Shown one piece after another: positions 26,039 to 27,499 of a stretch of 64,000 bases of DNA. The DNA comes from Kofleriaceae bacterium (GTDB lineage: Bacteria > Myxococcota_A > Polyangia > Haliangiales > Haliangiaceae). The notes under the pieces are model-generated. The model did no database searches. It was not told the origin of the DNA and worked only from the letters and a program-made list of their open reading frames with translations. How positions within the stretch are numbered: position 1 is the stretch's first letter; every line of letters starts with the position of its first letter. Position numbers and translations under genes: made by a program. The stretch covers positions 105,634 to 169,633 of the forward strand of contig JAGPCY010000020.1 of NCBI GenBank assembly GCA_018057825.1, in the 5' to 3' direction.

Positions 26039-27499
26039 CTAGCCAAGGTGCTCGATCAGCTTCTCGATCCGCGCGACCACCGCGTCGACCGCGCGGTCGG
26101 CGTCGACCTCGATCGCGCCGAGGCTTCGATAGCCGTCGAGTACGCGGCTTCGGAAGGCGTGGTCGCCGGCCAGTCGCTCCTCCTCGGTGGTCGCGGCGCC
26201 CCGGTCGGCAAGCCGGCCACGGCGAACGGGCTCTGCGAGGGTCAAGAGGACCAGCAGATCGGGGCGCGGGATCTCGGCGGGCCACGCGGCGATCGGGCCG
26301 TCCTGCTCGGCCGCGGCGAACGCCAGCGTGGACGCCACGCTGCGATCCATCACCACCGCGCGCCCGGCGGCTCGGTGTCGCTCTGCGACCGCGGCGACCT
26401 CGCGATTCGCCGCCAGGTACCAGGCGCGGCGCTCGGCGGGCTCAGCCCGATCCGCCGCCGCTCGCTCGGCGGCGCTCGCCTTGTCCGGGTTGGTGAGCAG
26501 CGCTGCGTCCATGCGCTCGGCGAGCGCGCGCGCGACCGTCGACTTGCCACTGCCGTCGAGACCCTCGATCGCGATCAGCAGCGGAAGGTTCCCGGTCGCG
26601 ACCTCGCCGGGCGCGTACTCGCCACCGCGATCCAGGAAGCGCGCCTGGTCGAAGCCGCCGACGTCGGACCACGCCGCCATCACCCCGACCTCCGGGATCG
26701 GGCGGCTGCGCACGTAGCGCCCATCGACCCGCTGATAGAAGCGGCCGAGGGGGTCGACCATCGCGTACGAGCCGTCCATCGCGTCGTTGTCCTCGGTGAC
26801 GACCGCGACGCCCTCGGGCGCCCCGGCGCGGGCCCGGGTGACGTAGGCGGCGTACGCGTCCGGGGCGCAGACCAGCGCGGCGGCGTCGTCGTTCTCGCCC
26901 TCGACCAGGAGCATCTGGAACAGCTTGACCTTTTCGGGCCGCACGGCGCGGATCAGGTCACTCGGGTCCTCGTGGGCGTTGCGGTTGGTGACGGTGATGT
27001 TGAGCTTGAGCCGAAGGCGCCGCGCCGGCGGGCGGAGCGCGTTCCAGCGGTGGACCTGGGCCGCGACCGCGCGCACCTGCGCGACGTGGCCGCGCGCCAT
27101 CGAGGTCGCGCGCCGGCCGAGCTCGTGGGTGGTCGCCTCATCGATGCTGTCCACCGACAGCGCCAGCCAGCGGAGGTGAGGGCCGTGGTCGGCGAGCCAG
27201 GTCTCGTCGATGCGCGACGCGTTCGTCACGATCGAGGTCACGAGCCCGACCTCCGACGCGGCGCGTAGCAGCGTCGCCAGGTCGCGATGGAGCGTCGGCT
27301 CGCCGCCGGCGAAGGTCACCCGGCGGACGCCCTGGCCGTGGAGGTCCCGGAGGATCGCCACCAGGACCTCGGGAGCGAGCCGGGGCTGCTGGCGCTCCTG
27401 CTCGAAACGCGCGTAGCAGTACCCGCATTTCATGTTGCAGTGCGCGACCAGGTGGAGGTTGACGGTCGAGGGAAGGTACGTCGCAGAGCGAGTCGTCAT
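26039..27499 (-). CDS. Prokaryotic viperin-like radical-SAM enzyme fused to a thymidylate/CMP-kinase-like P-loop nucleotide kinase
   Basis: Viperin signatures VNLHLVAHCNMKCGYC (CxxxCxxC), VTFAGGEPTL, SIVTNASRIDETWL, KLFQMLLVEGEN, DGSYAMVD, FLDRGGEY, all in viperin order. Then P-loop LIAIEGLDGSGKST with lid/DR motifs of the thymidylate-kinase family. AAGGAG RBS 7 nt before the ATG at 27499. Confidence 0.8.
   Translation of the reverse strand: MTTRSATYLPSTVNLHLVAHCNMKCGYCYARFEQERQQPRLAPEVLVAILRDLHGQGVRRVTFAGGEPTLHRDLATLLRAASEVGLVTSIVTNASRIDETWLADHGPHLRWLALSVDSIDEATTHELGRRATSMARGHVAQVRAVAAQVHRWNALRPPARRLRLKLNITVTNRNAHEDPSDLIRAVRPEKVKLFQMLLVEGENDDAAALVCAPDAYAAYVTRARAGAPEGVAVVTEDNDAMDGSYAMVDPLGRFYQRVDGRYVRSRPIPEVGVMAAWSDVGGFDQARFLDRGGEYAPGEVATGNLPLLIAIEGLDGSGKSTVARALAERMDAALLTNPDKASAAERAAADRAEPAERRAWYLAANREVAAVAERHRAAGRAVVMDRSVASTLAFAAAEQDGPIAAWPAEIPRPDLLVLLTLAEPVRRGRLADRGAATTEEERLAGDHAFRSRVLDGYRSLGAIEVDADRAVDAVVARIEKLIEHLG

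Follow-up and report, generated by a model that had tools for sequence, protein, structure and literature searches.

A viperin-kinase fusion gene in a Kofleriaceae genome and a putative sigma-factor and promoter cassette that precedes it

Background

We describe a gene that encodes a viperin, a member of the radical S-adenosylmethionine (SAM) enzymes, fused to a nucleoside monophosphate (NMP) kinase domain of the thymidylate kinase family. It occupies positions 26039-27499 on the minus strand of a 64,000-nucleotide stretch of contig JAGPCY010000020.1 (hereafter, the window), which belongs to a metagenome-assembled genome (MAG) of a Kofleriaceae bacterium, a myxobacterium, as an earlier note on this DNA had supposed. 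A gene for a protein resembling sigma factors of the extracytoplasmic function (ECF) type lies directly 5' of the fusion gene, and a bipartite promoter-like motif separates the two. Our overall reading, which we hold to be probable, is that the locus specifies a bifunctional antiviral enzyme of the prokaryotic viperin type under sigma-like control. The enzyme itself is expected biology, and its NCBI entry (MBP8806307.1) is already named 'viperin family antiviral radical SAM protein [Kofleriaceae bacterium]'; within the locus, novelty is greatest in the regulatory cassette.

A human antiviral enzyme traces its ancestry to the bacterial viperins, which also supply natural nucleotides that act as chain terminators. 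Prokaryotic viperins (pVips) were reportedly described by Bernheim and colleagues in 2021. An association between viperins and kinases has been documented as well: for 12% of bacterial viperins a kinase is encoded no more than three genes away, 18 viperin-kinase fusions have been reported in eukaryotes, and CMPK2 enhances CMP-to-CTP conversion and boosts the CTP supply for human viperin (Shomar et al., bioRxiv 10.1101/2023.09.13.557418).

Results and discussion

An intact gene encodes both domains in one polypeptide

The fusion gene and its parts are listed below with the evidence on which each assignment is based.

26039-27499, minus strand: coding sequence of the viperin-kinase fusion, 486 residues (translation; Pfam, NCBIfam and PADLOC matches; AlphaFold2 (AF2) model; NCBI name).
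27506-27511, minus strand: Shine-Dalgarno sequence AAGGAG, 6 nt before the ATG (read from the sequence).
26612-27499, minus strand: viperin domain, resembling synthases of 3'-deoxy-3',4'-didehydro (ddh) nucleoside triphosphates (ddhNTPs), residues 1-296 (NF038283, PDB, Foldseek, conservation).
27416-27439, minus strand: CxxxCxxC motif for the [4Fe-4S] cluster and SAM, C21/C25/C28 (sequence; invariant in 78 of 78 family members).
26699-26743, minus strand: beta-8 loop of the nucleobase pocket, residues 253-267, RFYQRVDGRYVRSRP (alignments to 6q2p, 6b4c and 7n7i).
26582-26611, minus strand: short inter-domain linker, residues 297-306, PGEVATGNLP (sequence).
26042-26581, minus strand: NMP kinase domain of the thymidylate kinase family, residues 307-486 (PF02223, PADLOC, PDB, Foldseek, conservation).
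26537-26563, minus strand: P-loop GLDGSGKST, residues 313-321 (sequence; G313, D315, G318 and K319 invariant).

The open reading frame (ORF) runs unbroken from an ATG at 27499 to a stop codon at 26039-26041, and Pfam, NCBIfam and PADLOC profiles recognise both domains in its product, which bears out the earlier description of a viperin and a thymidylate-kinase-like domain joined in a single polypeptide. The ATG at 27499 was preferred to a GTG at 27844 because it is preceded by the AAGGAG site and because NCBI and all relatives use the same start. The 601-residue ORF that begins at the GTG overlaps the 3' end of the sigma-like gene, is unsupported by homologs and was rejected, as was a plus-strand reading of 26039-27499, the translation of which looks non-coding. 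Of the upstream features pointed out earlier, the AAGGAG ribosome binding site is present; as to the segment described as AT-rich, the GC content of the 101-nt gap 5' of the gene is 62%, compared with a window mean of 73%.

The fusion could in principle be an artefact of a frameshift, a mis-assembly or the merging of two adjacent genes, but the data already refute this explanation, to which we give practically no weight. The ORF is uninterrupted, and its GC content at third codon positions (GC3), 0.94 for the viperin part and 0.88 for the kinase part, is typical of the genome in each. An identical protein is encoded on nine contigs, from one NCBI MAG (GCA_020054605.1) and from independent SRA assemblies, with no stop or frameshift between the domains, and about 80 diverged clusters (42-99% identity) share the layout and a conserved short linker. 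The AF2 model, proposed earlier as a check and built here on 25 family members, is confident over the whole chain, with a predicted local distance difference test score (pLDDT) of 93.6, a predicted template modelling score (pTM) of 0.89 and no segment below 50. The fusion is thus real.

The N-terminal domain is a viperin

Every motif cited in the earlier note was found in the translation, namely CNMKCGYC (residues 21-28), GGEP (65-68), SIVTNAS (88-94), LLVEGEN (197-203) and FLDRGGEY (288-295) in the viperin half and GLDGSGKST in the kinase half, and the profile search that it recommended matched both Radical_SAM (PF04055, 2e-18) and Thymidylate_kin (PF02223, 7e-18). The NCBIfam model NF038283 (viperin_w_prok) scores 240.6 bits against a cutoff of 180 (1.8e-71), aligning residues 12-292 with positions 3-280 of its 281, whereas the NCBIfam MoaA models reach only about 60 bits against cutoffs near 300 (62 versus 284). 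PADLOC pVip models match with 202-228 bits (3e-68). In a sequence search of the PDB all nine viperin entries were recovered at 7.5e-32 to 5.7e-25, mouse viperin (6q2p) at 7.5e-32, and the next family, PqqE, followed at 1.6e-9.

The predicted structure leads to the same assignment. The top 30 Foldseek matches of the AF2 model are all viperins, with template modelling (TM) scores of 0.80-0.90; mouse viperin with CTP gives a TM score of 0.88 and a root-mean-square deviation of about 1.7-2 A, while the other radical-SAM enzymes lie far below (SkfB 0.54, PqqE 0.57, MoaA 0.56). The domain therefore groups with viperins and not with MoaA-like proteins, in line with the earlier claim that it is no generic radical-SAM enzyme.

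Conservation was assessed across 78 fusions in which, as here, the viperin precedes the kinase. G65-G66-E67-P68 of the GGEP motif is invariant in these sequences, and the equivalents of mouse N77, H79, C84/88/91, GGEP, S180, K220, N222, K247, Y302 and R347 are kept. The aligned NTP-binding residues of the window protein are N14, H16, K165, N167, K192, Y245 and R291, and its C-terminal RGG-Y signature is formed by R291, G292-G293 and Y295. With the pVips represented by NF038283 and PADLOC PDLC02903/02904 the protein thus shares the radical-SAM core, the CxxxCxxC and GGEP motifs, the NTP-binding Lys, Arg and Tyr and the RGG-Y ending; it passes the curated cutoff, its predicted fold lies 1.7-2 A from solved viperins, and its relatives are found in defence islands. 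It differs from them in its covalent C-terminal kinase, in an Arg that follows a conserved Gln at the selectivity site in place of the usual Asn, and in the dedicated sigma-like gene that precedes the viperin gene in Myxococcota.

The C-terminal domain belongs to the thymidylate kinase family

The kinase family named in the earlier note was correct, although the domain starts at about residue 307 and not at residue 320. Thymidylate_kin scores 65.4 bits against a threshold of 27 and aligns residues 311-478 with positions 1-185 of its 185. Human thymidylate kinase (TMPK; 1e9f) matches over the full domain at 5.7e-8, in an alignment that brings the P-loop, ANR and DR motifs into register, and Foldseek gives a TM score of 0.70 to human TMPK 2xx3, and likewise to the M. 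tuberculosis TMPK. Among PADLOC profiles the closest are PDC-M51B (7.6e-31) and the viperin-associated kinase VakA (3e-10).

In the 78 fusions D315, K319, D385-R386 and the lid residues R426/R429/R433 are invariant or nearly so, and P338, R346, R357-R358, Y361 and E439-440 are conserved in addition. The domain has Gly where type I P-loops have Arg and an Arg-rich lid, and thus resembles the type II TMPKs in this respect. A catalytically dead P-loop, raised earlier as a possible objection, is not what the residues suggest, as D315, K319, the DR motif and the lid Arg are all retained. Judged by residue conservation, the catalytic motifs of both halves are intact, neither domain is decaying and both active sites are under purifying selection.

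The PADLOC profile PDLC04690 (PDC-M51B, component B of the candidate system PDC-M51) matches 26042-26590 on the minus strand over its full length, and the viperin half matches no PDC-M51 component. The same kinase lineage may also work in that separate candidate defence system.

Fusion of viperins to kinases is recurrent

Searching a large protein database at E <= 1e-10 brought up 148 relatives, and the following architecture counts refer to the 120 of these that were listed. In 82 of the 120 the viperin precedes the kinase in a single chain of about 460-560 residues; six have the reverse order (517-535 residues) and 22 are standalone viperins. At least 80 viperin-first clusters share the two-domain layout of the window protein at 42-99% identity, and a scan of genome contigs revealed at least three full-length fusions. 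Named members come from Myxococcota and Planctomycetota MAGs.

The viperin domains of the kinase-first proteins are only 34-37% identical to that of the window protein, and their nearest relatives are standalone viperins with Asn in the base pocket, while their kinase domains share 65-70% identity with those of the close (clade-A) viperin-first relatives. One kinase lineage has accordingly been joined to different viperin lineages, and in both orders.

Four further viperin-first fusions of 473-484 residues (L014:6983-8404, L015:6944-8380, L032:1411-2865 and L095:1860-3293; L numbers denote the loci compared) were seen in Chitinophagales, Competibacteraceae and unassigned contigs. Their base pocket is of the canonical Asn type, FYDN, and their kinase is of another lineage, with the P-loop G.VASGK[ST]; on these sequence features they are an independent fusion event.

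The PADLOC model named 'Viperin-kinase fusion' (PDLC02905) is matched by the window protein at profile positions 181-459 only, that is, by the viperin half, and the kinase-first relatives likewise match it only through 181-459 and not through 1-180. As only this C-terminal viperin part is matched, PDLC02905 represents yet another fusion. Like the eukaryotic viperin-kinase fusions it joins a viperin to a nucleotide kinase; it differs in having its extra domain at the N-terminus, the window protein being distinct in domain order and in its PDC-M51B/VakA-like kinase lineage.

Comparison of these sequences indicates that viperin-kinase fusion is a recurrent, convergent theme of which the window protein is one variant. 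The rarity implied by the earlier note therefore does not hold, given at least 80 clusters, both domain orders, other kinase lineages, an existing PADLOC fusion model and the NCBI viperin annotation. What the recurrence takes away in novelty it returns as good evidence for functional coupling: repeated fusion in both orders and with several kinase lineages is strong comparative evidence that kinase-viperin coupling has been selected in bacteria.

The closest vertebrate parallel is the pair formed by viperin (RSAD2) and CMPK2, in which a viperin is genetically coupled to an NMP kinase of the thymidylate kinase superfamily that is thought to feed it substrate. The vertebrate pair is inducible by interferon; the present system would, as we propose, be induced in a sigma-dependent manner. 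In contrast to the vertebrate pair, both activities reside here in one polypeptide; the pocket has Arg and Tyr without the CTP-selective Cys314 and Lys319 of RSAD2, the N-terminal membrane-targeting helix is absent, and the induction machinery is unrelated.

The nucleobase pocket departs from that of most prokaryotic viperins

The beta-8 loop sets the base selectivity of viperins: mouse Cys314 and Lys319 confer CTP selectivity, Arg257 of the Trichoderma virens (T. virens) enzyme hydrogen-bonds uracil O4 and confers UTP selectivity, the Cys314 position is occupied by Asn in most prokaryotic viperins, which are promiscuous, and selective pockets have been found only in eukaryotes (Shomar et al., bioRxiv 10.1101/2023.09.13.557418). 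In our alignment R257 of the window protein falls in the column of mouse Cys314 and of the T. virens Arg, the latter being equated with 'Arg257' by alignment and not by coordinates, and Y262 falls in that of mouse Lys319. The aligned loops read YMRFLN-C-TGGR-K-DPSKSI in mouse, YMRFLD-R-NGQQPSKSI in T. virens and LGRFYQ-R-VDGR-Y-VRSRPI in the window protein. The T. virens viperin-like enzyme (7N7I, 6B4C; UTP-selective) thus shares the Arg of this column (FLD-R-NG versus FYQ-R-VDG), but the window loop is two residues longer, which is the mouse-like length, its flanks differ and overall identity is about 30%.

Asn occupies the Cys314 column in only 12 of the 78 viperin-first fusions, and with Arg257 the window protein lacks this feature, which marks the promiscuous pocket typical of prokaryotes and characterises a subclass without defining the viperin family. 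Three loop types account for the fusions: F[YF]QR[VR]DGRY (the window protein and about 30 others), FRQ[AS][RH]..GY (about 33) and FF.N..G.Y (12). The two types with Gln form a viperin clade of their own that is almost entirely kinase-fused, and the text of Shomar et al. contains no mention of a Gln or Arg pocket in prokaryotes. As Arg is placed where the UTP-selective fungal viperin has Arg, a changed specificity can reasonably be hypothesised, and one might guess that the Gln256/Arg257/Tyr262 pocket biases the enzyme towards pyrimidines or UTP, a bias that we consider rather doubtful. This large fused clade with Gln-Arg or Gln-x-Arg/His pockets could have a different or narrower product spectrum, and an altered pocket would be useful for making specific ddh-nucleotides.

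A sigma-like gene and a promoter-like motif precede the fusion gene

The earlier note took the fusion for a stand-alone defence gene. We found instead that a conserved ECF-sigma-like gene lies directly 5' of the viperin gene in 10-11 independent loci, and that a promoter-like motif accompanies it. The corresponding elements of the window are the following.

27601-28968, minus strand: membrane-anchored ECF-sigma-like protein, 455 residues, hereafter the partner (conserved synteny, profile-to-PDB search, AF2, hydropathy, NCBI name).
27545-27571, minus strand: bipartite promoter-like motif AAATCGAC-N13-CGAAAC, in the 101-nt gap (shared across partner loci).
29010-29034, minus strand: weaker copy of the motif, TCGAAC-N12-CGAACCG, 41 nt 5' of the partner ATG (relaxed pattern).

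The partner gene lies 101 nt upstream of the fusion gene on the same strand. Its product has no Pfam match at normal thresholds, and shares 45% identity over 416 residues (3e-110) with the product of the gene at the same position beside a 68%-identical fusion. Hydropathy and the all-helical AF2 model (pLDDT 83.8) indicate five to six hydrophobic helices at residues ~45-224, followed by a cytoplasmic sigma2-sigma4-like domain at residues ~288-455, without sigma3. When a profile of 27 partner sequences was compared with the PDB, the best match was M. tuberculosis SigL (9e-12, chain residues 36-169 of 177); the others include SigE, RpoE, SigJ and sigma-E, and all are sigma factors or sigma4-type helix-turn-helix (HTH) proteins. 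The predicted sigma4 domain superimposes on that of SigL (3hug) with a TM score of 0.82. In four of four diverged homologs sub-threshold Sigma70_r2 and r4 matches occur in the right order and at the same positions. NCBI names the protein 'sigma-70 family RNA polymerase sigma factor', and NCBI and JGI entries refer to the sigma-70/sigma-24 family.

The partner family is small: an exhaustive HMMER search found 84 representatives at E <= 1e-3 among 1.84 billion, of which ~40 are full length. The loci in which a profile scan placed a partner gene directly before a viperin gene are all from Myxococcota. The viperin is kinase-fused in the window, L005, L007, L011, L012 and L172, and unfused in L017, L021, L022, L041 and, with a weak match, L019. 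The partner is absent from 30 other viperin loci, including the kinase-first locus L174.

Among described ECF sigma factors, N-terminal extensions are rare and short, and extensions with multiple transmembrane segments occur only at the C-terminus (PMC7826278). The partner shares with ECFs that bear regulatory extensions (BldN/ECF121, with a proteolysed N-terminal extension; ECF263, with a C-terminal extension of five or seven transmembrane segments; PMC7826278) a sigma2-sigma4 core without sigma3, a candidate bipartite promoter and possible autoregulation. It differs in having an N-terminal extension of ~230 residues that contains five or six hydrophobic helices, in its conserved cytoplasmic Cys residues and in scoring below the Pfam sigma thresholds. 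The cysteines, all in the cytoplasmic domain, are C293 and C331 (27 of 27 sequences), C397 (nine of nine close homologs) and C452 (at least 90%); by analogy with Cys-rich ECF groups such as CorE2/ECF238, they hint at control by a metal or by redox state.

In the window the motif reads AAATCGAC-N13-CGAAACGGGG. Closely similar sequences occur in L041 (AAATCGAC-N13-CGAAACC), L012 (AAATCGAC-N13-CGAAACG), L011 (GAATCGAC-N12-CGAAACG), L172 (AAATCGAC-N12-CGAAAT) and L021 (TTTCGAAC-N12-CCAAACG), 38-62 nt upstream of the start codons of the downstream (cargo) genes, although the partner proteins of these loci are only 22-45% identical. A regular expression for the motif found it in six of 11 partner-positive and in none of 30 partner-negative loci, and the strict pattern matches the window once, where 0.07 matches are expected. 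With a relaxed pattern the window yields just two matches, the main motif and the copy at 29010-29034; since 0.93 are expected, the count is not significant, but the position and strand of the weaker copy are suggestive of the autoregulation common in ECF sigma factors. In the interval 25700-29300 no sigma70-type promoter, coding-strand terminator or Rfam element was found, the single terminator-like match being on the non-coding strand.

Three distant partner homologs (26-34% identity) do not precede a viperin gene. In L175:1321-4367 and L176:4001-6033 the cargo is a B12-binding radical-SAM gene; in L177:3521-8855 (and L178) it consists of a Pkinase fragment, a DUF2325-like gene, an NAD-epimerase and an rSAM-SPASM gene, adjoined by GmrSD_C. 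The motif follows these homologs too, as AAATCGAC-N12-CGAAACGG in L177 and AGATCGCC-N13-CGAAATGG in L176, and in degenerate form in L175. Across 178 loci the 10-mer TTACACGAAA has seven matches, six of which lie on the coding strand in the gap right after the partner gene. As the motif is found after partner homologs with unrelated cargo, it goes with the partner, not with the cargo. This pattern is most simply explained if the partner is a sigma factor or, failing that, a DNA-binding regulator of another kind, with the motif as its target site, and it suggests that the regulator-plus-promoter module is portable and its effectors exchangeable.

These observations can be joined to the pocket data in a broader proposal, which we put forward tentatively and regard as having the lesser chance of being right. 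Membrane-anchored ECF-like sigma factors and their cognate promoter, AAATCGAC-N7/8-TTACACGAAAC, would form a portable Myxococcota sensor-promoter cassette that switches on interchangeable radical-SAM effectors (viperin, viperin-kinase, B12-radical-SAM) upon envelope perturbation, for instance by phage, and that has been coupled to a viperin clade with a possibly base-selective Gln/Arg pocket. No description of a cassette of a sigma-like regulator and a promoter-like motif for viperin was found in the papers searched, where viperin and ECF sigma factors occurred together only in one review that mentions each a single time. If the proposal is true, the cassette would provide signal-induced viperin expression in bacteria with a logic analogous to interferon induction, and if it senses infection it would give defence genes an input module of a new kind. 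The way in which bacterial viperins are switched on seems little understood, and a sigma-like protein with a conserved promoter offers a concrete and testable handle.

Proposed function and alternative explanations

We propose that the N-terminal domain would use its [4Fe-4S] cluster and SAM to dehydrate an NTP to the ddhNTP, which would terminate the chains of phage RNA polymerases and block phage transcription. The C-terminal kinase would phosphorylate the matching NMP to the diphosphate (NDP), which would then be converted to NTP by the cellular Ndk or possibly by the kinase domain itself; in this way the fused kinase would make more substrate available locally, the part that CMPK2 plays for vertebrate viperin. 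The fusion gene is probably not expressed constitutively. An envelope or infection signal would act on the partner, either by releasing it from the membrane, as with the proteolysed N-terminal extension of BldN (PMC7826278), or via its conserved cysteines, and the partner would direct RNA polymerase to the AAATCGAC-N13-CGAAAC promoter and perhaps to its own. Of the elements of this scheme, the combination of a viperin with an NMP kinase activity is the one in which we have high confidence. An antiviral role seems likely, and control of the fusion gene by the partner, which conserved gene order and the motif suggest, is marginally favoured.

Several observations weigh against this scheme. The Sigma70_r2 (12.9-17.5 bits) and Sigma70_r4/r4_2 (11.7-15.5 bits) matches of the partner lie below the cutoffs of 24-25.7, and the Foldseek E-values of its whole chain are weak. 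Four partner loci, L005, L007, L017 and L022, have a degenerate motif or none, and the partner is not obligatory, being missing from the fusion loci L009 and L010 (Planctomycetota), L170, L171 and L173. The kinase domain scores 53.5 bits with the NCBIfam dTMP-kinase equivalog TIGR00041, below its cutoff of 83.25, and therefore represents a distinct subfamily and not an orthologous dTMP kinase; enzymes of the thymidylate kinase family, moreover, make NDP and not NTP. Finally, the window neighbours, a DUF4215/beta-helix secreted protein, an eCIS_core protein, a GNAT protein and a DUF1295 protein, are not recognisable defence genes, and a PADLOC search of the partner and these neighbours gave no matches.

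The points concerning the kinase bear on two issues. The earlier proposal of a complete path from NMP through NTP to ddhNTP in one protein was overstated: the family product is NDP, and both the NDP-to-NTP step and channelling are steps that we infer. The kinase might also not be a substrate supplier, and instead re-phosphorylate salvaged ddhNMP or ddhNDP, or exert a further antiviral activity by draining one particular (d)NMP pool. Such functions would suit a lineage distinct from the housekeeping dTMP kinase, with family-specific invariant residues (P338, R346, R357-R358 and Y361) and a match to PDC-M51B that suggests a defence role of the kinase in its own right. The vertebrate precedent, however, is substrate supply by CMPK2, and the fusion or linkage of several unrelated NMP-kinase lineages to viperins is more easily explained by a generic supply role, so that we consider this alternative quite unlikely and retain substrate supply as the preferred function.

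With regard to regulation, the partner may lack sigma factor function. It might repress or activate transcription as an HTH protein bound to the membrane, or be a degenerate sigma factor that serves as an anti-sigma factor or decoy, with the motif as operator, or it could merely be co-transcribed with the fusion gene, the motif being unrelated to it. Besides the sub-threshold Pfam scores, the PDB alignment begins only at about SigL residue 32-36, such that the first sigma2 helix may be missing; the lack of a detected terminator between the genes would permit read-through from the partner promoter; and N-terminal extensions with multiple transmembrane segments are absent from the described ECF types (PMC7826278). 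Against these alternatives, the motif is bipartite with a spacing typical of ECF -35/-10 elements and lies 38-62 nt upstream of the cargo starts, it tracks the partner across unrelated cargo, and the partner profile covers sigma2 and sigma4, with ECF sigma factors in RNA polymerase holoenzyme structures as top matches. We therefore rate a partner that is no sigma factor as rather improbable, although it is the most serious of the alternatives, and continue to favour a sigma-like regulator.

A true viperin-type ddh-nucleotide synthase could also serve sigma-controlled stress, development or secondary metabolism instead of phage defence, for example by producing a ddh-nucleoside for myxobacterial predation or signalling, with the kinase activating the precursor. 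The absence of defence genes and PADLOC matches around the gene in the window would be in keeping with such a role, as would the occurrence of the partner family before a B12-binding radical-SAM gene and a biosynthetic-looking kinase/epimerase/rSAM-SPASM cluster and the richness of myxobacteria in secondary metabolism. Yet the protein passes the NCBIfam 'antiviral' viperin equivalog and PADLOC pVip models, tailoring or export genes are not conserved beside the fusion across loci, and the cargo cluster of L177 itself adjoins a GmrSD_C gene. Fusion relatives, furthermore, are repeatedly found beside BREX, restriction-modification (RM), TIR, CHAT, McrBC and integrase genes; individual contexts comprise ThsB_TIR with CHAT and a caspase-like gene, MmeI-type RM with AAA_15, McrBC with CHAT, BREX with a recombinase and a PIN toxin, an integrase, and MmeI-type RM with a NERD-kinase. 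A non-defence role thus appears improbable, and phage defence remains the function that we prefer.

Neighbouring genes and other features

At one of the relatives' loci a gene for a 154-residue ThsB_TIR (Thoeris-type TIR) protein lies about 100 nt 3' of the viperin-kinase gene on the same strand (L007:5435-5899 and L008:8017-8481). The fusion there is 61% identical to that of the window, and CHAT, Peptidase_C14, an ordinary ECF sigma factor and a SAM synthetase are encoded nearby. SAM is the co-substrate of viperin.

The gene next to the fusion on its 3' side in the window (22538-25909, minus strand) encodes a secreted protein of 1123 residues with right-handed beta-helix repeats and 12 Cys-rich DUF4215 repeats (CDDGN...). 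It was rejected as a part of the system, as it adjoins the fusion in no relative. Its GC3 is 0.81, compared with 0.92-0.97 in neighbours, and the GC content of the region is 63-70%; the gene may have been acquired horizontally.

Farther out, an eCIS_core (DUF4157) protein with two HExxH-like segments is encoded on one side of the cassette (18871-21000, minus strand), and a 540-residue protein without a family match and a DUF6603 protein of ~1440-1595 residues on the other (30809-36762, plus strand). Families of the eCIS_core and DUF6603 type are often tied to contractile-injection or toxin loci; no tie of these genes to the viperin cassette was seen. Between the eCIS_core gene and a 394-residue gene at 21342-22526, a tandem hexanucleotide repeat occupies 21161-21340, with 30 copies of GACCGA at 82% matches, which can also be described as 4.3 copies of a 42-nt unit. 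Several frames across this tract hold long low-complexity ORFs with RS/PR or ET repeats.

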